Positions 23,035 through 57,971 of a stretch of 64,000 bases of DNA are shown piece after piece. The translations under genes and the position numbers were made by a program. The stretch is taken from assembly GCA_040219085.1 (NCBI GenBank), contig JAVJTC010000020.1, positions 208,317-272,316 on the forward strand, given 5' to 3'. Origin of the DNA: Acidimicrobiales bacterium. GTDB lineage: Bacteria; Actinomycetota; Acidimicrobiia; Acidimicrobiales; JAVJTC01. Numbering within the stretch: the stretch's first letter is position 1; every line of letters begins with the position of its first letter. The notes below the pieces were generated by a model that had not been told where the DNA came from, did no database searches, and saw only the letters and a program-made list of their open reading frames with translations.

Positions 23035-24981
23035 GTGCGCCGGGTCCGGACGGGGATCAGACGACTCGCAGGACGTACGGCGGCGATCTATCTGGTAGTC
23101 GGCTGCGCCTGGATCCTCGGATCGGATCTGTTCGTCCTCCTGACGACGGACGCCGACCGCGGCGACTTCGTCGTCAACTCCCTCAAGGGGCTCGGCTTCG
23201 TCTTCTTCACAGCGGCTGTCCTGCTCCTGGTCCTGCGTGGCTGGTCCCACAGGGTCTCGGAGGCATGGGATGCCGCCCTGGGTGAGCGTCGGCGGTTCCG
23301 TGCGCTCGTGAGCGGTTCGAGCGACGTGGTGCTGGTCCTCGCCGACGACGGTGTGATCAGCTACGCCAGTCCTGCCGTCACCTCGGTCCTCGGATGGGCG
23401 AGCGATGAGATAGTCGGCCAGCCGATAGCGGAACTCCTCCATCCTGACGACGTGCACTCCGCGTTCGGGTTCTGGGAGTCGGTCAGGTCCGGGAGCGCCT
23501 CGTCGGACCGCTTCCGCTCCCGCTTCTGCACCTCGACGGGTCGCTTCCGCCACATGGAAATGGCGGCGGCCGACATGCGCGCCGAGGCGTCGGTGGGTGG
23601 CATCGTCCTCAATGCCCGGGACGTCTCGCCCCGGGTCGAGGCCGAGCAGCGTCTCGAAGACGCCCTCCACTACGACTTCGTGACCGGGCTGGCGAACCGG
23701 GGCCGTTTCCTGGAGGAACTCCACGGAGCGTCCCGGGTGGTCCGGGAAAGCGATTCCCTCGCGCTCCTCGTCGTAGACCTCGATCGTTTCGTCGAGATCA
23801 ACGAGGAGGTGGGGCGCACCAACGGTGACGCGGTGCTCATGGAGGTCGGCCGACGTCTGGGTGAGGCGACTGACCCCGTGGCACTCGGACGAATCGGCGG
23901 CGACGAGTTCGGGTTGGCCGTCCCGCTCGACGCCTCCGCTGGTGGCGATCTCCGAGCCGAGGCCATGCGGTGCGCATCCCGGGTGGCCGAGGCGATCGCC
24001 GAGCCACTCGAGATCGGCGGCGTCCGTCTCCGACTCTCAACGTCGATCGGCGTCGCGCTGATCGGCGCTCACGGCGACCCGGACGCCGCTCTCGCTGCGG
24101 CAGAGGCGAGCTTGCATTCGGCCCGGACCCACCCCGAGCGCATCGCAGTGGCAGCTGAGGGAAAGCACCGCGTTGGTAAGGCCAGGGCGTCGACCATCGT
24201 CTCGGAGCTCCGGGACGCCATCGAGCGTGGAGAACTCGAGGTCCACTACCAGCCCCAGTGCGCGTTGGACTCGGGCGCAGTCGTGGGTGCGGAGGCACTG
24301 GTGCGGTGGCCCCACCCCACGCGGGGGATGCTCACGCCGGGAGCGTTCCTGCCCTTCGCCGAGGCGCACGGCCTTCAGGGCGCAATCACCCGAGTGTGCC
24401 TCGACGACGCGGCGCGCCGATGCGTCGAATGGAACGGGGACGGCCACCCGATGAAGGTGTCGGTGAACCTGTCGCTGTCGGACTTCCGCCGAGATTCGAT
24501 CGTCGACGAGGTCCTCGCCGCGCTGGAGCGCCACGGCGCCTCTGCGGAACTGTTCGGCCTCGAGCTCACCGAGCACACGCTTCTGGCCGAGCCCGATGTC
24601 TCGCTGGGCGCCATGAGGCGGTTGCGGGATGCCGGTCTGCATCTCAGCATCGACGACTTCGGGACGGGGTATTCGTCGATCGCCCACCTGCGGATGCTGC
24701 CCGTCGACGAGATGAAGATCGACCGATCGTTCGTCGCCGCGGTCACCAAGAACGAGGTGGATCAGGCGATCGTCTCGGCACTGATCGGCCTGGGTCATCG
24801 TCTGGGGTTGTCGATCGTCGCCGAGGGAATCGAGGATCCAGTCGTTGTCCAGCGGTTGCGAAAAGAGGGATGCGACGTCGGTCAGGGTTTCCTGTTCGGT
24901 CGTCCGACGCTCCCGGGCGACTTCACTCGTGAAGCGTTCGGCCGATGGGTTCCCGAATCGGCGGCTTCCAGTCTCAACTGA
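23035..24981 (+). CDS. Membrane-anchored PAS-GGDEF-EAL c-di-GMP turnover protein
   Basis: Two N-terminal TM helices and a PAS-like segment. Motifs RIGGDEFGLAV, GAEALVRWPHP, DDFGTGYSS. Confidence 0.9.
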   Translation: MRRVRTGIRRLAGRTAAIYLVVGCAWILGSDLFVLLTTDADRGDFVVNSLKGLGFVFFTAAVLLLVLRGWSHRVSEAWDAALGERRRFRALVSGSSDVVLVLADDGVISYASPAVTSVLGWASDEIVGQPIAELLHPDDVHSAFGFWESVRSGSASSDRFRSRFCTSTGRFRHMEMAAADMRAEASVGGIVLNARDVSPRVEAEQRLEDALHYDFVTGLANRGRFLEELHGASRVVRESDSLALLVVDLDRFVEINEEVGRTNGDAVLMEVGRRLGEATDPVALGRIGGDEFGLAVPLDASAGGDLRAEAMRCASRVAEAIAEPLEIGGVRLRLSTSIGVALIGAHGDPDAALAAAEASLHSARTHPERIAVAAEGKHRVGKARASTIVSELRDAIERGELEVHYQPQCALDSGAVVGAEALVRWPHPTRGMLTPGAFLPFAEAHGLQGAITRVCLDDAARRCVEWNGDGHPMKVSVNLSLSDFRRDSIVDEVLAALERHGASAELFGLELTEHTLLAEPDVSLGAMRRLRDAGLHLSIDDFGTGYSSIAHLRMLPVDEMKIDRSFVAAVTKNEVDQAIVSALIGLGHRLGLSIVAEGIEDPVVVQRLRKEGCDVGQGFLFGRPTLPGDFTREAFGRWVPESAASSLN

Positions 24982-25009
24982 TCCGCCTCGTCAACGGAGG
25001 TCAGCGCAC

Positions 25010-25504
25010 ATGTCGTCTCTTTCCCGTCGCATCCCGGTCTGGGTTCTCGCAGTTCTTGCAGTCACGCTGATCGCGACCGGCTGTTCCGACGACGACACGT
25101 CTGACGACACGGCTGCTGCGCCGGTCCTGGCGGATGTCGATGCGACGGGGCGGGAGCTCGCTACGGAATTCCTGACGATCCTGCAGGGTGGCGACACCGA
25201 CGTCCTCGGCGACTTCCTCGCCGACGGGTTCCAGATCCAACGGGCCGACGGTTCGGGGGCGACGAAGGCGGAGTACCTCGAGAATCCGGCCGAGGTGGGC
25301 GACTTCACGCTCGGTGACTCGGTCACGGCAGTGCAACAGGGCGACGTCCTCACGGTGCGGTGGACGCTCGAGGTGTCCGAGGCGATCGACGGAACCGACT
25401 TCTCGGGGAATGAGGCCCCCCGCCTCTCGACCTTCGTCTACGTGGACGGACGCTGGCGGCTGCTCTCGCACGCGAACTTCAACCTGCCCGCTGCCGACAG
25501 CTGA
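25010..25504 (+). CDS. Lipoprotein with NTF2-like (DUF4440/SnoaL-like) domain
   Basis: GGAGG RBS 10 nt upstream of the ATG. Lipobox LIATGC. C-terminal ..FVYVDGRWRLLSHANF typical of the NTF2-like fold. Confidence 0.7.
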   Translation: MSSLSRRIPVWVLAVLAVTLIATGCSDDDTSDDTAAAPVLADVDATGRELATEFLTILQGGDTDVLGDFLADGFQIQRADGSGATKAEYLENPAEVGDFTLGDSVTAVQQGDVLTVRWTLEVSEAIDGTDFSGNEAPRLSTFVYVDGRWRLLSHANFNLPAADS

Positions 25505-25794: not shown

Positions 25795-25797
25795 AAG

Positions 25798-26184
25798 TGG
25801 AGCTGGGGGGAATCGAACCCCCGTCCGTCGTGCGTTCACCACCTGCGATACGACCATTCCCGGACTACGGCGTTTCGGCTGCCGTGTCGCCGGGTCGATT
25901 CCCCCGAAGGGGTCCGCCGGCTCTTTCTCCGGTCGTCAGCGGTCTTTCTCGCCGTCAGCGGTCTTTCCCTGCCGTCCTCCTCCGCTTCTGTTGCCAGGCT
26001 GCGGTGGAATGGCCCCGCGTGCCCCCTAGGGGGTCGCGATGTGCTCTCTTACCTGATCAGTCGATCAAGCTGCGAGAGCGACACGATCATCGCTGCCGTG
26101 TCTTCGTGTGCCCCGTTTAAGGAGTCTGAGCAACTCCGGTCGCACAGTGAGGATCCGGTCCCGACGTCGAAACCGATCAGCCCC
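25798..26184 (-). ncRNA. ssrA: tmRNA (transfer-messenger RNA)
   Basis: The minus strand starts GGGGCTGATCGGTTTCGACG and ends GGACGGGGGTTCGATTCCCCCCAGCTCCA (tRNA-Ala-like T-arm and acceptor). Internal tag frame: ..CAC GGC AGC GAT GAT CGT GTC GCT CTC GCA GCT TGA = ..HGSDDRVALAA*, with the stop at 26065-26067. smpB is 1.3 kb away. Confidence 0.95.
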
Positions 26185-47217: not shown

Positions 47218-47291
47218 GCCTCCGTAGCTCAGATGGATAGAGCAGTGGACTTCTAATCCTCAGGTCGCAGGTTCGAATCCTGCCGGGGGCG
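47218..47291 (+). tRNA. tRNA-Arg (anticodon TCT)
   Basis: Acceptor GCCTCCG/CGGGGGC, D-arm GCTC-AGATGGATA-GAGC, anticodon arm GTGGA-CTTCTAA-TCCTC (one U-U mismatch), T-arm GCAGG-TTCGAAT-CCTGC. 74 nt. Confidence 0.85.
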
Positions 47292-47364
47292 CCGATGTGA
47301 TGCCGCAGGTGGCGCCGGGGGTGATGGTGCGGACGGTCTCGTGGCGGTAACGCTCCGGAGCGGT

Positions 47365-47419
47365 GTCATAGCGAATTGGTCGCCTTCGGGAGCAGTGTGA
47401 GGCTGGAATTCGCTATGAC
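47365..47419. repeat. Copy 2 of the inverted-repeat element: perfect 13-bp arms GTCATAGCGAATT / AATTCGCTATGAC, 29-nt spacer
   Basis: Read directly. It starts 74 nt after the tRNA-Arg 3' end and lies between convergent genes. Confidence 0.85.
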
Positions 47420-47483
47420 GCTGTCGCCAGCGGATGACCGGGATAATCGCTATGACACTGTCGCCAGCGGATGACCGGGATGT
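47410..47483. repeat. Two tandem copies of a 37-bp unit (TCGCTATGAC[G/A]CTGTCGCCAGCGGATGACCGGGAT..)
   Basis: 35 of 37 positions align with one mismatch. The first unit begins inside the right arm of the inverted repeat, so the 10-mer TCGCTATGAC occurs three times (one inverted, two direct). Confidence 0.9.
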
Positions 47484-47519: not shown

Positions 47520-48518
47520 CTACGACTCGATCTCAGGAGGCTCGGGCGTCTCCGGAGTCTCGATCTCCTCCGGCTCGTCCTCTTCCTCCGGCTCGTCCTC
47601 TTCCTCGGGCTCCTCGGGATCTTCGGGGTCTTCGGGGTCCTCGCCCCCGTGATCGTCTCCATCGTCGGGGGTACCCGTCGGCGTCGGTGTGGCCGTCGGC
47701 GTGCGTGTCGGCGTCGGCGTGGCGCTCGGGCCGGGACCGGGCGTGGGCGTCGATCCGCCGGGGGTCGCTGTCGGCGTGGTGGTCACGCCGCCGTCGGTCG
47801 AGCCCTCGTCGCCGGTGCCGTCCGTGTCGCCACCGGTTCCGCCGTCATCGCCATTCCCGCCGGAATCCGTCGGCCCGGCGGAGCCACCGTCGGTGGTCCC
47901 GCCCGGGACACCTCCGGCATCGCTGCTCGAAGTGACCGGTGCCGCTCCAGAAGAGGTCGTGACGGTGCCGTTGCGCAGTTGGGCGCGCCAGCGGACGTTC
48001 TCGGTGCCGTCGGTCAACAGGAGCTCGATGACGCTTCCATCTTCGGTGACCACGACGTGGGACCAGCCCGGATCGGTGTCGACGGACATGAGGGTGAGGG
48101 CGTCGGCTTCGATACGCACTGTGACCAGGGCCACGTCGATGTCGAAGCGGGCGATGCCGTCGCTTCCCGGGGTGGCCGAGGGTCCGGCTTCGAGCACGAT
48201 CGCCCCGTCGATGGAGGTTCCGTCGCCGGAAACGCCGTCGCCGCCGTCCGTCGTGGATCCGCCGCCGTCAGGGTCGCCGGCGACGGTGATCTCGTTGCCG
48301 CCGTCGTCGCTGCCGCTTCCCGACAGGGCGAACGCAGCAGCCGCCACGGCGATCACGAGGAGTAGCGAGACGCCGAGTCCGGTGACGGCCACGCGCCGGT
48401 TGCGGGCGCGCCGCATGCGGGGGCGCAGTCCCTCGAGCACGGCCTCGGGATGGTCGATCCGGCTCGGGGCCGCTTCGAGCAGACCCCGGCGAATCTCGTC
48501 GTCGAACATGTCGTTCAT
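47520..48518 (-). CDS. Single-pass membrane protein coupled to ECF sigma (candidate anti-sigma) with Gly/Asp/Thr-rich and acidic Glu/Pro C-terminal tail
   Basis: ATGA overlap with the sigma gene. ~44-aa cytoplasmic N-terminus, a TM helix (VAVTGLGVSLLLVIAVAAAAFAL), an external ~90-aa folded-looking segment, then low complexity ending DDGDDHGGEDPEDPEDPEEPEEEDEPEEEDEPEEIETPETPEPPEIES. Confidence 0.65.
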   Translation of the reverse strand: MNDMFDDEIRRGLLEAAPSRIDHPEAVLEGLRPRMRRARNRRVAVTGLGVSLLLVIAVAAAAFALSGSGSDDGGNEITVAGDPDGGGSTTDGGDGVSGDGTSIDGAIVLEAGPSATPGSDGIARFDIDVALVTVRIEADALTLMSVDTDPGWSHVVVTEDGSVIELLLTDGTENVRWRAQLRNGTVTTSSGAAPVTSSSDAGGVPGGTTDGGSAGPTDSGGNGDDGGTGGDTDGTGDEGSTDGGVTTTPTATPGGSTPTPGPGPSATPTPTRTPTATPTPTGTPDDGDDHGGEDPEDPEDPEEPEEEDEPEEEDEPEEIETPETPEPPEIES

Positions 48519-49018
48519 CGCCAGCTCTCCTCCCGGTCGTCGCCTTCGCTCAGGTGTTCACGCAGGTTCGCCCTGGCCTGCGAAAGGTGTGCCTTGACGG
48601 CGCCCTCGGAGATTCCCATCGAGTCCGCGATCTCGCGGACGGGAAGGTCCTCCAGGTAGTGCAACACGATCGCGGTGCGCTGACGTTCCGGGAGTCGGCC
48701 GACGAGTTCGGCGAAACCGCCGTCTTCGGCGCCGAGGGACACGTGGCTGCGGGGCTCGGCGCCCGCCCGTGCCTCCGCTTTCCTCTGGCGCTCGCGCTTG
48801 CGGGCGAGGTCCCGGAGCCGGTTGATCGCCACACGGCGGACCCACGCCTGGGGGATGTCGTAGCGACGGATCCGGTTCCAGCGCGAATAGGCCTTGACGA
48901 AGGCGTCCTGGACGGCCTCGGCGGCCGCCTCAGCGTCGCCGAACGCCACAGTCAGCGATGCGACGACCGGTCCGTACGTGTCGGTGAAGAACGCGTCGAA
49001 ATCGTGCCTGTCGGTCAT
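48515..49018 (-). CDS. ECF-type RNA polymerase sigma factor
   Basis: Region 2 (AVQDAFVKAYSRWNRIRRYDIPQAWVRRVAINRLRD) and region 4 (LPERQRTAIVLHYLEDLPVREIADSMGISEGAVKAHLSQAR). ATG 49018 chosen; the ORF extension to 49825 is rejected. Confidence 0.85.
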   Translation of the reverse strand: MTDRHDFDAFFTDTYGPVVASLTVAFGDAEAAAEAVQDAFVKAYSRWNRIRRYDIPQAWVRRVAINRLRDLARKRERQRKAEARAGAEPRSHVSLGAEDGGFAELVGRLPERQRTAIVLHYLEDLPVREIADSMGISEGAVKAHLSQARANLREHLSEGDDREESWR

Positions 49019-49167
49019 CTCGAAGACGATCCGCCTCGTCGCTGTCTGGGTGGCGGTAATGACGCGTGCGGCCGGCCTCGCATCGCTCAGCGAGATCAGC
49101 CGAAGCCACTCTTCGCCCAGTGTGGCAGGAAAGGTCACACCTCTCACACGCACCTGAGGGCCCCGCA

Positions 49168-49215
49168 GGTTTAGTCGCATCGCAAACCGAAAAAAGATTC
49201 GTGGTCGGCTAAACC
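49168..49215. promoter_or_regulatory. Imperfect inverted repeat GGTTTAGTCG-28 nt-CGGCTAAACC in the divergent promoter region
   Basis: 10-bp arms with 1 mismatch flanking an A-rich stretch (CCGAAAAAAGATTCG). It lies between the sigma start (49018) and the operon start (49272). Confidence 0.3.
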
Positions 49216-49271
49216 CCCAGCGTGGTGACCGGCGTGTCCCATGTGACGAGTCCCCCGGACCAGGAGCCACC

Positions 49272-49979
49272 ATGCCTCGCCGCACCGCACTCACGATCGC
49301 CGCCTCGGTCATCGCCGTCATCGTGACGGCCACCACGGCCGTCGCCCTGTCACTGTCGGCCCTCGACGCCGGCCAGACCACCGAGGCCCAGTTCGCCGCA
49401 GCGGTCAGTCCGATAGAGGAGGCGCCTGGCGAGCCGGTCGTGGAACCGGTCGCCGATGTCGTCGACCCCACCGCCGAGGCGGTGCCATCCGAAGACCCCA
49501 CCACCGAGCCCGAATCCGGCGAGACGCCGACGTCGGTTCCGGCGGCTACCGGTTCGTCGCCGGCCTGGACCGCTCCGGCCCCTGCGAACTTCGCTCCGAC
49601 GCCTACCGGCACTCCGACCGCTCCCCCTGTGGCCCCCGCCGGCGATGCGACCCAGCAGACGGCACCTTCCTCCTTCGAGGTCGATGACCTGGTCGTGCCC
49701 ACACCGGCGGCCACCCCGTCGGCTGCTGCGACGCCGGCGCCGTCCGGCCCCGTCAGTCGGCCGATCTCGCCGGTGGCGACCACACCGACGCCGACTTCCG
49801 CGCCGGCTGCCACGCCCTCTCCCACCGCTCCGGCGTGGGAAGACGACGACGAGTACGACGAGCACGAAGACGAGCACGAGTACGAGCACGAGTACGAGGA
49901 AGAGGACGAGTACGAAGAGCACGAAGACGAGTACGAGGAAGAGGACGACCACGAGTACGAGTACGAGGACGGTCACTGA
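49272..49979 (+). CDS. Membrane-anchored or secreted Pro/Thr/Ala-rich protein with 46-aa C-terminal E/D/H/Y tail
   Basis: AGGAG lies 6 nt upstream of the ATG. N-terminal hydrophobic segment LTIAASVIAVIVTATTAVALSLSA. Tail: EDDDEYDEHEDEHEYEHEYEEEDEYEEHEDEYEEEDDHEYEYEDGH. Confidence 0.7.
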   Translation: MPRRTALTIAASVIAVIVTATTAVALSLSALDAGQTTEAQFAAAVSPIEEAPGEPVVEPVADVVDPTAEAVPSEDPTTEPESGETPTSVPAATGSSPAWTAPAPANFAPTPTGTPTAPPVAPAGDATQQTAPSSFEVDDLVVPTPAATPSAAATPAPSGPVSRPISPVATTPTPTSAPAATPSPTAPAWEDDDEYDEHEDEHEYEHEYEEEDEYEEHEDEYEEEDDHEYEYEDGH

Positions 49980-50734
49980 TGGCGGCCGACGCCCCGGCGC
50001 CCTCGCGCCGTCGTCAACCGCCGGCTCTGGCGGCCCGCATCATCGCCACGAGCGCAACGGTGTGTCTGTTCATCGGGATCGTGCTCGCCATGGGCGGCTT
50101 CGTCGAGAGCCGTCGCGTCACCACCCTGGCTGCCGCCGTCGGGGATCCCGCTCCTGATCCCGCGTTCGACGCGGCCGGTTCGCCGCCGGGCACGGTCGGC
50201 GCCGAGACCGAGGTGACCGTTCCGGAGACGCCGTCGACGGTCGTCGAACCCACCCCTGGGGCTGACGCCGCGAACGGGCCCCTCGACGCGGAGACCCCCG
50301 TCGAGGAAGCGACCCCCGCGGGTGAGCAGGGTCCGGCGAGCCCGGCCGGTGGGGCCGTGTCGGTCCAGCCGAACGCCGCCGCCACTCCCGGCGCCCCGGC
50401 ACCGACTGCGCCCGCACAGCCGGCTGCCCCGGCACCGGCTCCGTCGAGCGCAGCCCAGCCTGCGGCGACGCCGGCCCCCACGGCGGCTCCGCAGCCTGCG
50501 GCGACTCCCGCTCCCACGCAGCCTCCGGCATCACAGCCGACCACCGCGCCGACGCCGGCCCCGACGGCGGCGCCCACGCCGCGTCCGACGGCGGCGCCCA
50601 CCCCGGCTCCCACCGCGGCCCCTACGCCTCCGCCCACCCCGGCGCCGACGCCGGCTCCAACGGCCGCGCCGACGCCGGCACCGACGCCTCCGCCGACCCC
50701 CGTGCCGACTCCGACCACCCAGCCGAGCGGATGA
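49979..50734 (+). CDS. Single-pass membrane protein with long Pro/Ala/Thr repeat region
   Basis: TGATG overlap with the upstream gene. TM helix IIATSATVCLFIGIVLAMGGF. The C-terminal ~120 aa are (TPAPTAAP)-like repeats. ATGA overlap with apbE. Confidence 0.65.
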   Translation: MAADAPAPSRRRQPPALAARIIATSATVCLFIGIVLAMGGFVESRRVTTLAAAVGDPAPDPAFDAAGSPPGTVGAETEVTVPETPSTVVEPTPGADAANGPLDAETPVEEATPAGEQGPASPAGGAVSVQPNAAATPGAPAPTAPAQPAAPAPAPSSAAQPAATPAPTAAPQPAATPAPTQPPASQPTTAPTPAPTAAPTPRPTAAPTPAPTAAPTPPPTPAPTPAPTAAPTPAPTPPPTPVPTPTTQPSG

Positions 50735-51648
50735 GCGCCACAACCGTGCGGGTGCACGAGTTCCGGGCGATGGGCTCGCGGTGTCAGGTGGTGGTGGACG
50801 GACCTCTCGGGCTGACCGATCGCGCCGAGGCGCGGGTCCGGGCGCTCGAGGAGACCTGGTCCCGGTTCGTCGCTGACAGCGAGATCTCCCGGATCAACGA
50901 GCGGCCCGGTCGGCCGGTGACGGTGGGTTCCGCCACGATCGACCTCTTCCGGCGGGCCGAGTTCGCCCGTGTCTCCACCGGCGGGCTCTTCGACCCGATG
51001 GTGCTCGACCATCTCATCGCGGCGGGCTATGACCGCGACCATCGCGAGCTCGTGCCCGCCCAAGGGACAGCGCAGCCCCGGACCGGCGCCGCCCGTCCGG
51101 TGGGTACGTTCCGGGTGGACGGCGACACCGTCACCGTCGAAGGCGGCCGGTTCGATCCCGGCGGTCTCGGCAAGGGACTGGCCGCCGATCTGGTCGCGGA
51201 AGAACTTCTCGAGGTCGGTGCCGCCGGTTGCTACCTCGACCTCGGCGGCGACATCCGCTTCGCCGGCGAACCGATCGACGGTGAGCGTTGGCGCGTGCAC
51301 GTCGACGATCCCCTGGGTGTCGCTCCCGTGTGCACCCTCGGGCTGCCCCCGGGTGGTGGAGGCGTCGCCACGTCGGGTGTTCTCACCCGACGCTGGCACC
51401 ACGACGGTGCGGACCGGCACCACCTGATCGATCCCCGCACCGGTGAGCCCGCCGACACCGCTCTGGCGTCGGTGACCGTGATCGCCGGGGCCACATGGTG
51501 GGCGGAAGTCATGGCCAAGTCGGCGCTCGTCGCGGGCGCAGACGACGCAGAGTCGCTCCTGCATGAAGGTGGCGTGACGGCGATTCTGGTCGCGAAGAAC
51601 GGAAAGAGAACAGTCGTCGGCGATCTCGAGGAGGTCGGCGGATCGTGA
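50731..51648 (+). CDS. apbE: ApbE-family FAD:protein FMN transferase (no signal peptide or lipobox visible)
   Basis: DPGGLGKGLAAD (compare the GGIAKGYA loop) and HHLIDPRTGEP (compare HIIDPRTG). 305 aa. The N-terminus MSATTVRVHEFRAMGS lacks any hydrophobic leader. Confidence 0.85.
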   Translation: MSATTVRVHEFRAMGSRCQVVVDGPLGLTDRAEARVRALEETWSRFVADSEISRINERPGRPVTVGSATIDLFRRAEFARVSTGGLFDPMVLDHLIAAGYDRDHRELVPAQGTAQPRTGAARPVGTFRVDGDTVTVEGGRFDPGGLGKGLAADLVAEELLEVGAAGCYLDLGGDIRFAGEPIDGERWRVHVDDPLGVAPVCTLGLPPGGGGVATSGVLTRRWHHDGADRHHLIDPRTGEPADTALASVTVIAGATWWAEVMAKSALVAGADDAESLLHEGGVTAILVAKNGKRTVVGDLEEVGGS

Positions 51649-52292
51649 ACGAGCAGCTGTGGTGGTACGTGGCCCGATCCGGTGGCATCGTCGCGTGGGC
51701 TCTGCTCACGGTCTCGGTGGTGCTCGGACTGTCGCTGTCCACGGTGATCGCCGGCCGGAGAGTCCCAAAGCCCTGGCTCCTGTCGATGCATCGGTATCTG
51801 GGGCTCGTCGCCATCGTCATGACCGGGTTCCACCTCGCCGGCCTGGTAGCCGACAGCTATGTGCACTTCGACGTCATCGACCTCCTGGTGCCCTACTCGT
51901 CGGAGTGGCAGCCCGGGGCGGTCGCATGGGGGGTGGTGGCCATGTGGCTCCTGCTCGCCGTGGAGATCACGTCTCTGCTCCGCCGCCGGATCCCGAAGAG
52001 GCTGTGGCGGTGGGTGCACGTGTCCTCGTTGCCGCTGTTCGCCATGGCGACCGCGCACACCTTCACCGCCGGCACCGACGCCGGCCACGGCTGGTTGCGG
52101 TGGGGCGCGATCATCTCCGTGAACGTCGTGGCCTTCCTGACCATCGTTCGCATCGTCGTCGAGAAACGACCGGCCCGGGTCATCCCGGCCCGACCGTCGG
52201 CGAAGAGAACGCCTCCGGTGGAGCCGTCGTCGCAGGGAGTTCCCGAGGTCGAGCCGTCGCAAGAGCGGGTCCCCGTGGTATCTCAGGGCTGA
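51645..52292 (+). CDS. Ferric-reductase-domain (MsrQ/YedZ/NOX-type) bis-heme b membrane protein
   Basis: Six hydrophobic helices. His-x13-His (HRYLGLVAIVMTGFH) and His-x12-His (HVSSLPLFAMATAH) sit in alternate helices. GTGA overlap with apbE. Confidence 0.78.
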   Translation: MNEQLWWYVARSGGIVAWALLTVSVVLGLSLSTVIAGRRVPKPWLLSMHRYLGLVAIVMTGFHLAGLVADSYVHFDVIDLLVPYSSEWQPGAVAWGVVAMWLLLAVEITSLLRRRIPKRLWRWVHVSSLPLFAMATAHTFTAGTDAGHGWLRWGAIISVNVVAFLTIVRIVVEKRPARVIPARPSAKRTPPVEPSSQGVPEVEPSQERVPVVSQG

Positions 52293-52295
52293 GCC

Positions 52296-53720
52296 TCAGG
52301 ACTCCTGGGTCTTCTCCCCGCCAGGTTTGCTGCGCTTGGCCTCGTACATGGCCCGATCCGCCAGCGACAACAACTCCTCGGGTGCGATGCTGCTCGGCGC
52401 GAGTGCCACGCCGACACTGGCCGTCACCGTGACGGCCCCGGTGCCCACCTCGATGGGCCCGGCCACGACTTCACGCACGCGCTCGGCGATGGTCTCGAGC
52501 CATGCGCGGTCGGTGGCTCCGGGAAGGACGAGAGCGAACTCGTCGCCGCCGAGACGGGCGACGGTGTCACCGGGACGGAGGATGGCGCGCAGGCGCGTCG
52601 CGACAACCCGGAGCACGGTGTCACCCGCCTCGTGGCCGTGCGTATCGTTCACGGGCTTGAAGTCGTCCAGGTCGAGATACAACAGCCCGACCCACTCGCC
52701 GACGCCGACCGTGGTCGTGTAGCGGCGCTCGAATCCTCGCCTGTTCGGCAGGTCCGTGAGGCTGTCGTGGGTGGCCTCGTACTCCCGGCGCTGATCGTGA
52801 CGGTCACGGTCGAGGGTGATCCGGACCAGTTCACGGGCGCGCTCGAGGCGTTGAGCGAGTGCGTTCGAGGGAGCGTGGCGTACCCGGGCGAACGCGAGCA
52901 GATGATGCGACTCTCCCCTTTCGTCCGTCTCGACGTCGACGCCCCAACACACCGAGTAGTCCGCTTCGAGGAGGCGCCGGCCGATGGTGTCGCCGATGTT
53001 GGAGACCGACACGGCTCGTGGCCGCGTTCCGACGGTCGCCCACCGCAGGGGGCCTGCGTCGGCGGCGAAGACACGGAACAGGGCGTCGTCGCTGGCCGCC
53101 ATGACGTGATGTGAGTTGGGCGTGGTCTCGAGGAGGACCGCCCCGACATCGAGGGGTGGCAGCGCGACCATCTCGATGATCATCGCGAGGACACCGCTCC
53201 TGCCCGCTCCGCCTGCGAGTGACGCGAGGATGCGCCTGAGGAGTTCGTCGCCCCTGGTGGGACGCAGGGTGTAGACGATCCCCGCGACGTCCGGGTCGGC
53301 GAGACCCCCTGTGCCGATCACCTCCACGGAGACGACACGCCCAGAGGCGCCGACCATCCGGAACTCGATCTCGGCCCATTCGCTGTCGAAGTCGGTGCCC
53401 CGGTCGGTGGTCGCGACGTTGGTGAAGACCTCGAGGATCCTTGCCTGGTCGCCGGGGTGCACGCGGTCGAGGGTCTGCATGCCGATGCCCTCGGCGATCG
53501 TCCAACCGCCGAGCCTCGCCGCTGCGACGTTGCCGTAGATCACGTGACCGGTGTCGTCCAAGACGAGCACCGGTGTCGGCAGGTGATGGAGGACTTTCGC
53601 GTAGAACGCGCCGCTGGTCGGCAGTCCCCGGTGAGGCGCGATCCCGCCGCCCTGGCGGGTGCCGCCGGGGCCGGAGGGGCTCGTGTCCCCGGTCCGCTCG
53701 CCTTGTGGGGCCTCGTCCAC
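52296..53720 (-). CDS. Sensor diguanylate cyclase (PAS plus additional sensory region plus GGDEF)
   Basis: PAS-like TPVLVLDDTGHVIYGNVAAARLGGW. GGDEF domain with DSLTDLPNRRGF, DLDDFKPVNDTHGHEAGD, LGGDEFALVL. GTG start at 53720. Confidence 0.88.
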   Translation of the reverse strand: MDEAPQGERTGDTSPSGPGGTRQGGGIAPHRGLPTSGAFYAKVLHHLPTPVLVLDDTGHVIYGNVAAARLGGWTIAEGIGMQTLDRVHPGDQARILEVFTNVATTDRGTDFDSEWAEIEFRMVGASGRVVSVEVIGTGGLADPDVAGIVYTLRPTRGDELLRRILASLAGGAGRSGVLAMIIEMVALPPLDVGAVLLETTPNSHHVMAASDDALFRVFAADAGPLRWATVGTRPRAVSVSNIGDTIGRRLLEADYSVCWGVDVETDERGESHHLLAFARVRHAPSNALAQRLERARELVRITLDRDRHDQRREYEATHDSLTDLPNRRGFERRYTTTVGVGEWVGLLYLDLDDFKPVNDTHGHEAGDTVLRVVATRLRAILRPGDTVARLGGDEFALVLPGATDRAWLETIAERVREVVAGPIEVGTGAVTVTASVGVALAPSSIAPEELLSLADRAMYEAKRSKPGGEKTQES

Positions 53721-54783: not shown

Positions 54784-55629
54784 TCAGCCGGCTCGGCCGA
54801 GCGTCGCGACGTAGCCGTCGGCCACGCTCGGTGTCACCGCTGGCGCACCGCGAGGTGGCTCGCCGATGCAGCGGAACCGCCCCGGGGCGACGGCGCGCGT
54901 CGGGATGCCCGGCGGTGGCCGGTCCGTCTCCCAGACGAGCCCGGCGGCGGTCGAGGCGAGTCGTTGCGGCGTGCCCGTGAAGATGGCCCGGCCCCGGTCC
55001 ATCACGACCACGTTGCCGCAGACGGTGGCGAGTTCGTCGGCTTCGTGGGTCGCTATCAGAAGCGTTGCGGCGCCGGCCCTGTCGGCGACCAGCGTCACCA
55101 CGTCACCGCGGCGGTGTGCGTCGAGCGAGCTCAGGGGCTCGTCGAGGACGAGCAGGTCGGGATCGCCGAGGAGGGCCTGTGCCAGGGCGAGTCGGCGGCG
55201 CATTCCGCCGCTCAGGGTCGAGATCCGGTCGCCGGCCACATCGTCGAGTCCGACCGTCGTGAGCGCCCAGTGACACCAGCGCCGGCGGAGGCGCTGAGGC
55301 CGGATCTCCTTGAGCGCCCCGACGTACTCGCAGAACTCCCCGACCCGCATCCGGGGCGGAAGGCCGTCGTCCTGGCCGAGGTAGCCGAGTCGGCGCCGCA
55401 GCGCCACGCGCGTGGCCGGGTCGTCGGGGTCGAGGCCGTCGACGCGCACCGAGCCGGACTGGCGTGTCGCCACGGTGGCGACGAGGCGCAGCAGCGGGCT
55501 CTTCCCCGAGCCGTTCGGGCCGAGGATCGCGGTCGCGCCCGGCCCGATCACCAGGTGCCCGATGTCGAGTGCGGTGGTCGTGCCGTAGCGGTGCGACACG
55601 CCGTCGACGGTGATCACGGGCGCGCTCAC
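54784..55629 (-). CDS. ABC transporter ATP-binding protein
   Basis: Walker A GPNGSGKS, signature LSGGMRRRLALA, Walker B LLVLDEP. GTGA overlap with the upstream membrane gene. Confidence 0.88.
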   Translation of the reverse strand: MSAPVITVDGVSHRYGTTTALDIGHLVIGPGATAILGPNGSGKSPLLRLVATVATRQSGSVRVDGLDPDDPATRVALRRRLGYLGQDDGLPPRMRVGEFCEYVGALKEIRPQRLRRRWCHWALTTVGLDDVAGDRISTLSGGMRRRLALAQALLGDPDLLVLDEPLSSLDAHRRGDVVTLVADRAGAATLLIATHEADELATVCGNVVVMDRGRAIFTGTPQRLASTAAGLVWETDRPPPGIPTRAVAPGRFRCIGEPPRGAPAVTPSVADGYVATLGRAG

Positions 55630-56420
55630 TGCGCCCGCTCGATGTCGCCGAGGCGGCCGCGGCCGGCGAAGAACAGGACCGTCGCGGCGATGGCGACGAG
55701 GCCCGAGGCGACCTGTGTGGCCGGGCCGAACGCGGTCGACGCGTCGGCGGTCCGGTCCACGGTGACGATGACCGCCAACCACAGACCGCCGACCGTGAGA
55801 GCCGCCCGCCGGACCGTGATCCGGGTGGCCAGCGCCATCGTGGCGGCCGTCACCGCGAGAGCCGGGAGAAGCCAGGCGATGCGCGCCGGTCCTCGTTCGG
55901 GGGTCAGCACCGCCGCCACGAGGAGAAGCGCGGTGCTCGACGTCAGCACCGTCAGGGTCCGCACGAGGAAGACCCGGTGGCCCTCCATCGGTGCGGCCAC
56001 GACGATGTCATGGGTCGGATCGACGCCCCGCCCGAACGCCAGAGCGACACCGAGCAGCGGCACGAGCGGTGCCATCGTGAGGAACACGACGAGACGATCG
56101 ACCCCCTCGCCGCCGCTTCCGGACGCCGCCTGCAGAGCGAAGACCAGCGCGATCGTGACTGCGACCAACCATGATCGGCGCAGACCCGGGGTCGCGGTCA
56201 CCAGCGAAACCGTCACGTCGTCGACGCCGAGGCGCGTCATGATCCGGGCGACCAAGCGGGGCTTCGAAGCAGCAACCTCGGCCTGCACGGCGGCGAGGTT
56301 CGCAGCGAGCCGGGCCGGGTCGGGGGCAGCCTGGTCCCGGGGGCCCGCGAGCCGCACCGGGTCTGTCGCCGCCGCCTGCAGCGCTGTCTCGAGCGCGGTC
56401 GATCGGGATGTGGGACTCAT
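55626..56420 (-). CDS. Polytopic membrane protein (about 6 TM) coupled to ECF sigma and ABC ATPase; candidate anti-sigma and/or permease
   Basis: ATGA overlap with the sigma gene. ~85-aa soluble N-terminus followed by six hydrophobic segments. No zf-HC2 motif seen. Confidence 0.6.
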   Translation of the reverse strand: MSPTSRSTALETALQAAATDPVRLAGPRDQAAPDPARLAANLAAVQAEVAASKPRLVARIMTRLGVDDVTVSLVTATPGLRRSWLVAVTIALVFALQAASGSGGEGVDRLVVFLTMAPLVPLLGVALAFGRGVDPTHDIVVAAPMEGHRVFLVRTLTVLTSSTALLLVAAVLTPERGPARIAWLLPALAVTAATMALATRITVRRAALTVGGLWLAVIVTVDRTADASTAFGPATQVASGLVAIAATVLFFAGRGRLGDIERAQ

Positions 56421-56965
56421 CGGAGTTCCTCCTCGAGGATGCGACGGGCACGCGCCAGGCGGGACTTGACCGTGCCGGTGGGGATGTCGAGCAGTACGGC
56501 CGCCTCGCGGTTCGTCAGCCCGTCCAGTGCGGTTGCGGCCAGCACGGCCTGCAGGTCCGGTTCGAGCCGGGCGAAGGCCTGACCCAGGTCGGTGTCGGCG
56601 AGGGCGATGGGCACCTCCTCGGTCACCACCCGTGCGAGTCGTGAGATCTCCTCCACCGGTTCAGGTGGGCGGAGTCGACGCATCTGGTCGATGAGACGGC
56701 GCAGCGCGATCGTCCAGATCCAGGCGGCGACATCGCCGGTCGGTTCGTAATCGCCGGCCTGGCGCCACACCGCGAGGAAGGCGTCCTGGATCGCGCTGTC
56801 GATGTAGTCCGCATCTCCGCAGCGGCGCGCGAGCCGGGCCATGAGCCAACCCGCGTGGCGCTCGTAGAGCGCTGCGAGGGCCGCCCGGTCCCCGTCACCG
56901 ATGCGCGCGATCAGCGCACGGTCCGAGGTGTCCGCGTGCTCCCCGGCGTCGGTCACCACCGCCAT
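56417..56965 (-). CDS. ECF-type RNA polymerase sigma factor
   Basis: Region 2 (IQDAFLAVWRQAGDYEPTGDVAAWIWTIALRRLIDQMR) and region 4 (LTNREAAVLLDIPTGTVKSRLARARRIL). ATG 56965 lies 1 nt after the upstream gene's stop. Confidence 0.85.
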   Translation of the reverse strand: MAVVTDAGEHADTSDRALIARIGDGDRAALAALYERHAGWLMARLARRCGDADYIDSAIQDAFLAVWRQAGDYEPTGDVAAWIWTIALRRLIDQMRRLRPPEPVEEISRLARVVTEEVPIALADTDLGQAFARLEPDLQAVLAATALDGLTNREAAVLLDIPTGTVKSRLARARRILEEELR

Positions 56966-56966
56966 G

Positions 56967-57971
56967 CTAGGAATCGGCCCGGACCGCACACGGTGATGCG
57001 CCCGGATCGGGTGCGGGAGTCGAGGGCCGCGCCGTCCCGGTGGACCGTCGGCGCAACGGGTACAGCATCTGGCTCACGACGCCCGCCGGCACCGCCTCGT
57101 CCACCCCGTAGCGCTGCGGGCGGCGGTCCGCCGGCATGAAGTAGGTGCCGAAGATGATGTCCCACACGGGCAGGAAGACCGAGTAGTTGGTGTGGATCGA
57201 CTCCGGGTGGTTGCCGTGGTGCCAGTGGTGGAACTCCGGCGTCATGACGATTCTGTGGAGCGGCCGAAGGCGCCACCGCACGTTCGCATGGGCGAACAGG
57301 CCGATCAGGAACTGCACCACCGCGAATCCGCCGACGACCTCGAGTTGGAACCCCGCCACGAGAGCGAAGACGACGGGTACGGCGATGAGCACACCGTCGA
57401 AGGGGTGGACCCGGATACCCGAGATCCAGTCCATCCGGGCGCTCGAATGGTGGATCGAGTGGAAGCGCCAGAACAGAGGGACCTCGTGGGACAGGCGGTG
57501 GGTCCAGTAGATCAGGACGTCGAGGAGCAGAACGCCTTCGATCGCGATCAACCAGCCGGGTTGGGCCATGACGAGTGGTCGCAGGGTGAACGCAGGCAGC
57601 CAGAGCGGGAAGCACAGCACCGCGATGACGACACCGGCGACGAGACCGATGAGGTTGTTGAGCGGCGACACGAGGGCATAGGTGAGATCCGTGCGCAGCC
57701 CGGGCCGGCGGATGCGCTGACGGTGCCGTCGGAAGAGCTTTTCGAAGGGCACGACGAGGACGAAGAGAGCCGCGATGATCCCGGCCCCCTCGTAGCCGAG
57801 AGCGACCCCGGTCGCGATGGCGGCGATGAGCGCAGCCACGTGGATCCAGCCGAGGATGCGCCTCGACAGTGAGCGGGACCGTTCCGCCGGCGCAGCGGGC
57901 GGCGGGGGCTGCGCTGCAGGTCCGGGCGGCGGTGGTCGGGGCGGCGGCGAGGTCGGCCAGGCGAGGGTCAT
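56967..57971 (-). CDS. Fatty acid hydroxylase / sterol desaturase family membrane protein
   Basis: His boxes HRLSH, HSIHH, HHWHH. GGAGG RBS before ATG 57971. Pro-rich N-terminus. Confidence 0.85.
   Translation of the reverse strand: MTLAWPTSPPPRPPPPGPAAQPPPPAAPAERSRSLSRRILGWIHVAALIAAIATGVALGYEGAGIIAALFVLVVPFEKLFRRHRQRIRRPGLRTDLTYALVSPLNNLIGLVAGVVIAVLCFPLWLPAFTLRPLVMAQPGWLIAIEGVLLLDVLIYWTHRLSHEVPLFWRFHSIHHSSARMDWISGIRVHPFDGVLIAVPVVFALVAGFQLEVVGGFAVVQFLIGLFAHANVRWRLRPLHRIVMTPEFHHWHHGNHPESIHTNYSVFLPVWDIIFGTYFMPADRRPQRYGVDEAVPAGVVSQMLYPLRRRSTGTARPSTPAPDPGASPCAVRADS

Follow-up and report, generated by a model that had tools for sequence, protein, structure and literature searches.

A conserved four-gene operon of a leaderless ApbE, a minimal ferric-reductase-domain protein and two small proteins in an Acidimicrobiales bacterium, with a candidate non-canonical flavin acceptor

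The four coupled genes

The window analysed here is a stretch of 64,000 nucleotides from an Acidimicrobiales bacterium (assembly GCA_040219085.1, contig JAVJTC010000020.1, positions 208,317 to 272,316 of the forward strand), whose nearest genomes are metagenome-assembled genomes (MAGs) of Ilumatobacteraceae/Acidimicrobiales. We follow an operon of four genes, g1 to g4, in which genes for two small proteins precede those for an ApbE-family enzyme (flavin adenine dinucleotide (FAD):protein flavin mononucleotide (FMN) transferase) and a ferric-reductase-domain (FRD) protein. The original prediction, made from the sequence alone, had described four coupled open reading frames (ORFs) behind an AGGAG ribosome-binding site, and both coordinates and junctions are confirmed: the ORFs, taken from the ORF list of the window, all lie on the + strand and are joined by the overlaps TGATG, ATGA and GTGA. 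The same four genes were called independently by a gene caller on Logan contig L009, which bears the same sequence (L numbers label contigs and loci throughout). The features of the operon are as follows.

49262-49266, + strand: AGGAG ribosome-binding site of gene 1, read from the sequence, 5 nucleotides ahead of the first ATG
49272-49979, + strand: gene 1 (g1), 235 amino acids, low-complexity protein with an Asp/Glu/His/Tyr tail; no Pfam or NCBIfam match
49272-49364, + strand: N-terminal signal peptide or anchor of g1, MPRRTALTIAAS..., from the ORF translation; a disordered Pro/Ala/Thr spacer follows
49836-49976, + strand: 47-residue Asp/Glu/His/Tyr tail of g1, from the ORF translation
49979-50734, + strand: gene 2 (g2), 251 amino acids, single-pass, Pro/Ala/Thr-rich; no Pfam or NCBIfam match
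49991-50098, + strand: basic cluster and transmembrane (TM) helix of g2, residues 5-40, from a leave-one-out profile match
50546-50713, + strand: 12-nucleotide repeats within the disordered, outward PAT-repeat spacer of g2
50714-50731, + strand: g2 C-terminus T-T-Q-P-S-G, candidate non-canonical flavin acceptor
50731-51648, + strand: gene 3 (g3), 305 amino acids, ApbE-family FAD:protein FMN transferase, leaderless (PF02424)
51154-51177, + strand: DPGGLGKG of g3
51418-51423, + strand: H230/H231 of g3
51505-51507, + strand: E259 of g3
51517-51519, + strand: K263 of g3
51645-52292, + strand: gene 4 (g4), 215 amino acids, minimal five-helix FRD protein, predicted di-heme cytochrome (PF01794), with predicted heme ligands H49, H63, H125 and H138
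52068-52079, + strand: outer loop A142-G-T-D145 of g4

The product of g3 matches PF02424 at E 1e-50 over model positions 1-265 of 266. Because the match already begins at residue 14 and the frame offers no start codon ahead of 50731, a signal peptide cannot be accommodated and the ApbE is leaderless, as had been predicted. Aligned to solved ApbEs (at E 1e-20), g3 preserves the FAD-binding motifs and the catalytic His: H257 of the Vibrio cholerae enzyme corresponds to H231 of g3, and H230/H231 align to ‘yshiidp’ of 6nxi. The metal-site motif, A-D-x-L-[AS]-T in the solved enzymes, reads A-E-V-M-A-K in g3. Its Asp is D283 of Escherichia coli Ftp, a ligand of metal site 1 (PMC4767422). Among the 120 closest homologues of g3, E259 is present in 116 and K263 in all, while H230/H231 and the FAD-binding motifs are invariant. 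The Thr that K263 replaces we take, from the Treponema pallidum structure, to be a metal ligand, and the invariant Lys might stand in for a Mg2+ ion.

All 120 of these homologues start 3-29 residues ahead of the domain, with no hydrophobic stretch. An exhaustive search returned 815 cluster representatives at E 1e-30 or better; among the best 150, none of the 144 sequences that were new has a hydrophobic N-terminus, and by a rough pattern match most carry Glu and Lys at the two metal-site positions, and others Glu and Thr. On these alignments the g3 group forms a large ApbE subfamily whose metal site is altered and whose members uniformly lack a leader. The ApbEs of the Rhodococcus, Mycobacterium, Cnuibacter, Arthrobacter and Gordonia plasmids described below have Asn and Thr at the same positions. 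The nearest non-actinobacterial ApbE of a genome scan (L008 5700-6998, from a Burkholderiales MAG, 34% identity) is also apparently leaderless; it adjoins a gene for a large protein with the string T-V-D-S-V-S-G-A-S, which resembles a DUF3570 outer-membrane ApbE substrate.

The sole Pfam match of g4 is PF01794 (Ferric_reduct), at E 3e-10 and 40.5 bits against a curated cut-off of 28. Its His pairs have the bis-heme spacing that had been noted originally, H49-x13-H63 and H125-x12-H138, and sit inside two predicted helices, 43-69 and 118-141. From 69 sequences, AlphaFold gives a model (predicted local distance difference test, pLDDT, 90.4) with five long helices (5-36, 43-69, 90-111, 118-141 and 149-173) and two short outer ones. 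The top Foldseek matches of this model are 7tai (STEAP2), 8ucd (STEAP1) and 5o0t (the TM domain of NOX5), and SpNOX is also matched, with probability 1.00, a TM-score of about 0.5 and E 6e-3 to 8e-2. The counterpart of the first of the six MsrQ/NOX helices is missing, and there is no cytosolic donor domain. This minimal form is typical: nearly all of the 1965 homologues found at E 1e-5 or better have 187-250 residues and consist of the FRD alone. Across 121 FRD sequences the four His, R50, D70, P83, E107, S110, W121 and G143 are invariant; in the outer loop [T/S]144 is found in 120 of the 121, and A142 and D145 are nearly invariant.

Loops 1 and 3 and the C-tail of g4 are strongly basic, so the positive-inside rule would place the N-terminus on the outside together with the A-G-T-D loop. 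In the model, H49/H125 would then hold the inner heme and H63/H138 the outer one, with the basic C-tail in the cytoplasm. We infer that g4 binds two b-type hemes and transfers electrons across the membrane.

Conservation of the cassette and of its two small proteins

When one genome per species was scanned, seven loci from Ilumatobacteraceae showed an ApbE-FRD pair with a sigma factor nearby. Long contigs looked up by FRD or ApbE homologues carry the full quartet (unknown, unknown, ApbE, FRD) in L010 (the 87% relative), L011, L013 and L014, and a trio in L015. A metagenome scan with the ApbE alignment yielded 556 confirmed relatives among 600 pattern-matching stretches, of which 80 were kept. 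Counting all related loci with at least 500 nucleotides beyond ApbE, the FRD gene immediately follows ApbE in 64 of 73 and lies elsewhere within the locus in 4 more. The gene order can change: L016 is split, with g1, g2 and FRD on one strand and a response regulator, a histidine kinase and ApbE on the other, and the trio of g2, ApbE and FRD is retained under altered order in L016, L021, L046, L056 and L063. A g2-like gene stands beside ApbE-FRD in Acidimicrobiia, Actinomycetes, Bacillota and one Psychrobacter plasmid. Every cassette seen adjoins a regulator, either an extracytoplasmic-function (ECF) sigma factor with its anti-sigma factor or a histidine kinase/response regulator pair; in L001-L006 and L013 the cassette has a sigma homologue close by. 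The quartet is a conserved unit in an arrangement far beyond chance, and g1 and g2 are conserved partners of the ApbE-FRD pair and not chance neighbours.

The core of the cassette also turned up in a plasmid protein search, on plasmids of Rhodococcus, Mycobacterium, Cnuibacter, Arthrobacter, Gordonia, Streptomyces, Alicyclobacillus, Paenibacillus and Psychrobacter. The commonest order is kinase/regulator, small g2-like protein, leaderless ApbE and an FRD of about 185 residues, often with a NuoF-like protein and a ferredoxin behind it; the Streptomyces FRD instead carries a fused FNR-like/2Fe-2S module. Genes of the VIT family and of the DUF2231, CDF, P-type ATPase, ArsR and MerR types often lie nearby, and none of the plasmid cassettes found contains an FMN-binding-domain gene. 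In three plasmid records the small g2-like ORF is unannotated in the PLSDB gene tables:

L098 3750-4110: unannotated g2-like ORF, Cnuibacter NZ_CP020716
L097 4750-5095: unannotated g2-like ORF, Streptomyces NZ_CP109047
L101 3770-4050: unannotated g2-like ORF, Arthrobacter NZ_CP014572

These ORFs bear the N-terminal anchor of the family, end in ..H-A-T-T-K-G-S, ..M-T-R-S-G-G-S and ..H-T-T-T-R-A-S, and sit between the kinase (or g1-like genes) and ApbE.

Some Ilumatobacteraceae have two ApbE-FRD pairs, as in L003 (3377-4872 and 7385-8879). L005 (10037-11014) and L006 (10080-11015) have an extra FRD paralogue with an A-G-S-D loop beside a second sigma factor; its C-tail is long, Pro/Ala-rich and presumably cytoplasmic. 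In L001 and L007, both Microflora Danica MAGs, apparent frameshifts in (CCGGCT)n Pro-Ala repeats break or fuse the g1 and g2 frames and are probably assembly errors.

In the window, the regulator is encoded divergently from the operon:

47520-48518, - strand: anti-sigma factor, from the ORF and an independent gene call, directly after the ECF sigma gene; no Pfam match
48515-49180, - strand: ECF-type sigma factor, 221 amino acids, with Sigma70_r2, Sigma70_r4_2 and Sigma70_ECF matches

The sigma factor scores 133 bits against TIGR02983 (SigE-family), slightly below the cut-off. The anti-sigma factor begins in the cytoplasm, crosses the membrane with one TM helix and continues with a small beta-type sensor domain (approximately residues 120-185), a Pro/Thr linker and an acidic tail. 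Its residues 141-181 match the g1 protein of L089 at E 2e-5, and the small beta domain also occurs in some g1-family members (L062 and L089); by this similarity, g1 is related to the sensor part of the adjoining anti-sigma factor.

Members of the g1 family were found in L010, L011, L014, L016, L056, L062, L063, L077, L082 and L089. In the compact relatives, all of these but L010, the N-terminal string M-x-[RK][RKH]-T-A-[LI]-T leads into an Ala/Thr-rich helix and then an A-x-A site. The N-terminal charge pair varies (RR, KR, RK, KK, HR, QR); a strict twin-arginine (Tat) signal was considered and is unlikely for that reason, and a Sec-type signal peptide or anchor is the likelier assignment. The tails abound in Asp, Glu, His and, in some, Tyr, and many end [ED]-H-E-[HY]-E-G-..-D-D. 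The His content is not kept in the 87% relative, where the tail is Glu/Tyr/Pro-rich. In the Psychrobacter cassette the g1 position is taken by a PepSY-domain protein with a His/acid tail, and a Streptomyces plasmid has two g1-like proteins with Met/Gly/Asp-rich tails, flanked by a heavy-metal P-type ATPase on one side and by a MerR-type regulator plus an HMA-domain protein on the other. Judged by composition, the common trait of the g1-position proteins is a strongly acidic end rich in metal ligands; the Ilumatobacteraceae g1-position protein has the beta domain and no acidic tail. We also considered the strings S-G-V-S/S-G-A-S in the beta domain of the Ilumatobacteraceae proteins as a flavinylation site and rejected them as unconserved (SGVS, SGAS, SGAA, RGAG).

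For g2, an alignment of 32 proteins from this position has a gapless core that consists of an Arg/Lys run, the string H-P-A-x3-R-[IV]-x3-G-x-S and an Ala/Gly/Ser/Thr-rich helix; the basic anchor reads ‘RRRHPA..R’. A leave-one-out profile of 31 g2 N-termini, with the window row excluded, matches residues 5-40 of the window protein at 28.9 bits, a match obtained only with the HMMER filters off. From the charge distribution, the N-terminus of g2 is predicted to lie inside and the remainder outside. The outward part differs among relatives in composition and in length (from about 30 to more than 200 residues), and the window's PAT repeats would thus be a spacer and not the functional core; some relatives are as short as 65-85 residues, so the repeats are dispensable. 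A single frameshifted gene for an anchored ApbE, made up of g2 and g3, was considered as well and rejected, since many independent assemblies share the stop/start layout and no slippery site is present.

The original prediction had described g1 and g2 as single-pass anchors that are otherwise of low complexity. One N-terminal hydrophobic segment each and a low-complexity remainder were indeed found; the description holds less well for g1 as an anchor, where the segment is more likely a Sec-type signal peptide or anchor, and for g2, which is more than a PAT-repeat anchor in that its C-terminus is conserved.

The candidate flavin acceptor and the weighing of explanations

Covalent flavinylation by ApbE wires the cytoplasm of many bacteria to extracellular redox chemistry. 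The first question is whether the operon encodes a canonical acceptor. A motif scan found [ST]GA[ST] in none of the four proteins and not in the anti-sigma factor, in agreement with the original reading. Searches of Pfam and NCBIfam found no FMN_bind domain and no other known ApbE-substrate domain (NqrB/RnfD, DUF2271, DUF3570, Flavodoxin_4 and FMN_red were considered) in g1-g4, the flanking anti-sigma factor or ten g1/g2 homologues. Across the ORFs of the window, the scan found no [ST]GA[ST] in a gene adjoining the operon. Three in-gene matches belong to the amidohydrolase, 5'-nucleotidase and DUF4440/SnoaL families of Pfam, and a fourth lies in an ORF whose L009/L013 counterparts are AMP-binding genes. 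The DUF4440/SnoaL-like protein (ORF 24845-25504, + strand, likely start MSSLSRRIPVWVLAVLAVTLIATGC) has a lipoprotein signal and the string R-A-D-G-S-G-A-T; it is the sole apparently exported protein of the window with [ST]GA[ST], 25 kb from the operon. About three matches are expected by chance in the real ORFs of the window, and so the lipoprotein match carries little weight. Natural fusions of ApbE or FRD to g2 or to other domains were also sought and discarded, as the long FRDs add only low-complexity tails and the long ApbEs look run-through or frameshifted.

The candidate that we favour is the C-terminus of g2. In a hand-collected set, 43 of 50 g2 proteins end in [ST]-x-[GA]-S plus 0-2 residues; when g2-like frames are taken from all loci by the N-terminal profile only, 40 of 46 do (with the same 0-2 residues), compared with 1.7% among other reading frames and 6.6% when g2 tails are shuffled. 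Run against 5.8 billion proteins, the N-terminal profile returned 35 proteins of 65-85 residues, 33 of which end in ..V-T-x-S-x-[GA]-S. Of the small proteins looked up, three lie directly upstream of ApbE beside a kinase/regulator pair, with an FRD following in L106 and L107, the two of the three loci with enough sequence to show it. The motif-bearing g2 sequences span Acidimicrobiia, several orders of Actinomycetes, Bacillota and one gammaproteobacterium, and the g2 of L023 ends in canonical S-G-A-S. The residues ahead of F-R-A-M-G in ApbE vary in number and sequence; ApbE coding is thus an unlikely source of the constraint. We conclude from these comparisons that the g2 C-terminus appears to be under selection as protein.

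A framework for the whole locus is provided by the MsrQ-like clusters of Meheust et al. (2021, eLife; PMC8238504), which combine PF01794 and apbE, sometimes with NuoF-like or VIT1 genes, and occur mostly in Actinobacteria; the proposed electron flow is from the cytosol to the outside, and reduction of iron or another metal is suspected. That survey kept for analysis only ApbE/FMN_bind genes with a predicted signal peptide or lipobox, and thus the leaderless ApbE group would have fallen outside it; it also counted about 4% of genomes with apbE but no known substrate (PMC8238504). Its supplement holds no searchable Acidimicrobiia entries. Very probably, our locus is a stripped-down transmembrane electron-transfer module of this MsrQ-like flavinylation type, so the variant module of the original prediction finds its place here (PMC8238504). 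As a complete account we tentatively prefer an envelope-stress-regulated module for outward electron transfer in which g2 is the ApbE substrate, and for this account as a whole the chances seem slightly below even. For g2 as the flavin acceptor we likewise stop just short of an even bet, and whether a metal ion is the physiological electron acceptor seems to us evenly poised.

In the favoured account, electrons would enter the inner heme of g4, perhaps from menaquinol or a soluble reductase, and g4 would pass them from the cytoplasmic face to the outer heme. That the flow would be outward follows from the cytoplasmic NADH-type donors in the cassettes of relatives. The g3 ApbE, having no export signal, would stay in the cytoplasm and attach FMN to the terminal serine of g2. 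The latter would be an N-in/C-out anchored protein that bears a natural ‘flavin tag’ at the C-terminal end of a flexible Pro/Ala/Thr leash, and its flavin could take up electrons at the outer heme and relay them to an external acceptor, perhaps a metal ion bound by the g1 tail; g1 itself would be secreted or anchored, with its acidic, His/Tyr-rich tail capturing the metal ion that is reduced. Judging by the conserved linkage, the divergent ECF sigma/anti-sigma pair (the histidine kinase/response regulator in other lineages) would switch the operon on, and the anti-sigma factor would sense the same signal as g1, since it shares the g1 sensor domain and acidic tail. There is some precedent for such a substrate: a 7-residue tag suffices for modification by ApbE, best at a protein terminus (PMC12052999), and in FMN_red proteins the flavin is attached to a C-terminal extension that has no structure (PMC11334425). 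Flavinylation of NqrC requires a nearby Lys (PMC4767422), and it may be speculated that the Arg, Lys or His common at position -2 of the g2 end acts similarly.

Metal reduction outside the cell is suggested because relatives adjoin VIT, CDF and P-type ATPase genes and because g1 tails are rich in His and acidic residues or in Met. A metal-handling role had been proposed originally from the tail of g1; it fits these contexts, ArsR/MerR genes included, and the tails as a class, although the His of the tail is not conserved in the 87% relative. A more specific and, to us, doubtful version is a domain-less ‘flavin on a leash’, in which the metal-site-variant ApbE flavinylates g2 in the cytoplasm, the tail is exported and the flavin reduces the metal held by g1. 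With the same degree of doubt, translational coupling would aid this process, and the flavin, on a tether of between 30 and more than 200 residues, would carry electrons through the cell wall.

A number of points weigh against g2 as acceptor and against the account built on it. The motif counts overstate the independent observations, because many loci, and the 35 small proteins with them, are related by descent. The motif [ST]-x-[GA]-S departs from the canonical D-x-x-[ST]-G-A-[ST], and the end of the window g2, T-Q-P-S-G, fails even the strict pattern with a Pro at -1, though its register is the same. In about 20 loci, the last four g2 codons overlap the ApbE start (CAT GGC AGC TGA / ATG GCA GCT GA..); this overlap alone would yield [HNSDRG]-[GA]-S-stop, so that the motif signal is partly non-independent. 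As a mere by-product of the ApbE start, however, the motif is insufficiently explained, for it survives other geometries and gene orders. Loci with the motif and no g2-ApbE overlap are L016, L046, L021, L056, L098, L102 and L107. It is also present at a GTGA overlap with ApbE (..S-H-G-S, Mycobacterium plasmid), where ApbE starts past the g2 stop (Cnuibacter ..T-K-G-S; L107 ..S-Q-G-S), where FRD is the next gene (L016 ..T-R-G-S; L056 and L063 ..T-G-G-S) and where g2 lies downstream of FRD (L046 ..T-K-G-S; L021 ..T-R-G-S).

The enzyme and the topology raise difficulties of their own on the same side. The changes at the metal site of g3 (Asp to Glu, Thr to Lys) mean that transferase activity cannot be assumed. 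A leaderless ApbE, seen in some 260 relatives, is hard to reconcile with a target serine predicted to face outward, and because of this mismatch FMN would need to be attached ahead of tail export; we know of no precedent for the export of a flavinylated tail. The most economical way out would be that very small g2 proteins are completed before membrane insertion and flavinylated in the cytoplasm, which the overlap of g2 stop and ApbE start favours. The topology itself is drawn from the positive-inside rule and an AlphaFold model, the FRD outer loop has an invariant [T/S] that could be the real flavin site, and no metal-related gene adjoins the operon within the window.

That outer loop is the basis of one alternative, in which the FRD itself is the acceptor, with FMN on Thr/Ser144 of [T/A]-A-G-[T/S]-D in the manner of NqrB/RnfD. 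We judge this improbable, and with it the corresponding role of g2 as a structural or assembly subunit that might, for example, supply the sixth helix absent from the FRD. The (nearly) invariant A142-G143-[T/S]144-D145 of 121 homologues speaks for it, as do the retention of G-T-[D/E/G/S] in distant plasmid relatives, the near-permutation of T-G-A-T in T-A-G-T and the predicted position beside the outer heme, the place expected for the FMN of canonical FMN_bind partners; integral membrane subunits that undergo flavinylation are known (PMC11334425), and the gapless register of the g2 TM helix is as for helix packing. The loop motif is nevertheless unlike [ST]GA[ST], and with invariant D70 and D145 (and H74 in most) the loop could equally be a metal-substrate site or a helix cap. 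Facing outward, it presents the leaderless ApbE with the same access problem as the g2 tail, and it leaves the conserved extreme C-terminus of g2 unexplained. In another alternative, ApbE acts in the cytoplasm on another or distant acceptor, or as an FAD-binding or -hydrolysing supplier of flavin to the inner face of the cytochrome, with g1 and g2 as metal-binding or scaffolding subunits only; both the enzyme's role and that of the small proteins in this scheme appear unlikely to us. No relative has a signal peptide, the ApbE of Klebsiella pneumoniae is cytoplasmic with cytoplasmic targets (PMC12052999), the metal-site Asp and Thr have become Glu and Lys, the lipoprotein 25 kb away carries D-G-S-G-A-T, and the window cassette lacks a NAD(P)H module on the cytoplasmic side, so a flavin at the inner face would help. 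Yet cassettes that already have NuoF-like and ferredoxin donors retain ApbE, the catalytic His and FAD-binding motifs are invariant, and the near-universal tight linkage with FRD and g2 argues for a target within the cassette; the lipoprotein match is light in weight, given the roughly three [ST]GA[ST] matches expected by chance.

Linkage of g2 to ApbE could also mean that g2 is the export or anchoring partner of ApbE, a split anchored enzyme or a hitch-hiking one, possibly through Tat, that acts outside on FRD or g1. ApbE-family NosX proteins have Tat signals, and the Arg cluster with the weakly hydrophobic, Ala/Gly/Ser/Thr-rich helix of g2 recalls such signals; in most loci, moreover, the g2 stop overlaps the ApbE start. 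We hold this to be very unlikely, because in split operons g2 travels with FRD and not with ApbE (L016, L056, L063, L046, L021), no natural g2-ApbE fusion turned up (the long ‘fusions’ among the 150 representatives look frameshifted or run-through), RRRHPA..R differs from the Tat consensus and sits 7-8 residues ahead of the helix, and many members have long N-terminal extensions ahead of the basic motif. At the far end of the scale, g1 and g2 might be non-functional or chance neighbours, low-complexity ORFs of the kind that high-G+C DNA produces. Spurious ORFs are many in such sequence, and both products are mostly of low complexity and belong to no database family. But position, N-terminal motifs and C-terminal features are kept across classes and phyla, the leave-one-out profile match reaches 28.9 bits, an independent gene caller calls both genes, and start-stop overlaps tie them to the genes downstream; by these comparisons the idea has next to no probability left and is already refuted for practical purposes.

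Should g2 prove to be the acceptor, as we tentatively prefer, it would represent a new class of ApbE substrate and a partial answer to the ‘orphan apbE’ genomes of the 2021 survey. The rule that ApbE targets need a folded FMN-binding domain would fall, the cytoplasmic flavinylation of an exported tail would need explaining, and a compact, portable unit for metal reduction or extracellular electron transfer would be available for study and engineering. The cassette is abundant, with thousands of ApbE and FRD homologues from soil and water Acidimicrobiia and additional copies on plasmids.

Known systems and the surroundings of the operon

The window cassette would function like the MsrQ-like class yet is not a standard member of it, with two of the defining features present and two absent. 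It has a PF01794 protein whose gene overlaps apbE by GTGA, and its relatives carry NuoF-like/NAD-binding donors and a VIT1 transporter. Unlike the class, it has no gene with an FMN-binding domain (PF04205), its ApbE has no signal peptide or lipobox, its FRD has five helices in place of six and no cytosolic donor domain, and two small proteins, of the g1 and g2 families, are added. We found no published description of either family.

Compared with the ApbE/Ftp enzymes (V. cholerae 6nxi, E. coli, T. pallidum and FmnB of Listeria monocytogenes), g3 has the full-length domain with D-x-G-G-[IL]-G-K-G, A-T-S, the catalytic His and H-H-L-I-D-P-x-T-G; it differs in being leaderless where the others are mostly periplasmic lipoproteins, and in A-E-V-M-A-K for A-D-x-L-[AS]-T, with the Lys at 263 invariant in its clade. 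With the STEAP, NOX and MsrQ proteins, g4 shares His-x13-His and His-x12-His on two helices, the predicted fold and, presumably, the two-heme one-electron relay, whereas it has only about 175 structured residues in five helices, no fused FAD/NADPH domain, and the family-specific A-G-[T/S]-D outer loop and invariant D70, E107 and S110. Flavin-tag and FMN_red proteins offer a short unstructured terminal peptide as ApbE substrate, as proposed for g2 (PMC12052999, PMC11334425). Their peptides have the canonical D-x-x-[ST]-G-A-[ST] in contrast to the candidate [ST]-x-[GA]-S of g2, and the FMN_red tail folds back onto a flavin-binding domain, while the candidate g2 has no folded domain. In the extracellular electron transfer (EET) locus of Listeria (FmnB, PplA, EetA/B, Ndh2), an ApbE-type enzyme makes a membrane-tethered extracellular flavoprotein, with acceptors that include ferric iron. 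Both systems are Gram-positive with an ApbE-made tethered flavoprotein, which in our case is only proposed for g2. The differences are that PplA has two FMN_bind domains, FmnB is an exported lipoprotein, and the conduit is quinone/EetAB and not a heme FRD.

Around the operon, a PAS-GGDEF gene follows downstream on the opposite strand and marks the end of the unit. Promoter and terminator scans across 48900-52600 found nothing, and the intergenic alignment with the 87% relative (94% alike) is too similar for an ECF promoter to show. A 37-nucleotide unit is repeated 1.9 times at 97% identity at window positions 47410-47481; tRNA-Arg(tct) (47218-47293) lies on one side of it and the anti-sigma gene ends on the other. 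ARAGORN places a transfer-messenger RNA (tmRNA) at 25797-26184 (- strand) with an atypical tag peptide, GAHEDTAAMIVSLSQLDRLIR*, whose boundaries may be mispredicted. A separate sigma-linked module lies a few kb downstream on the - strand (54784-56989), where the gene for a second ECF sigma factor (56417-56989) precedes those for a multi-pass membrane protein (55626-56420) and an ABC ATPase (54784-55782).

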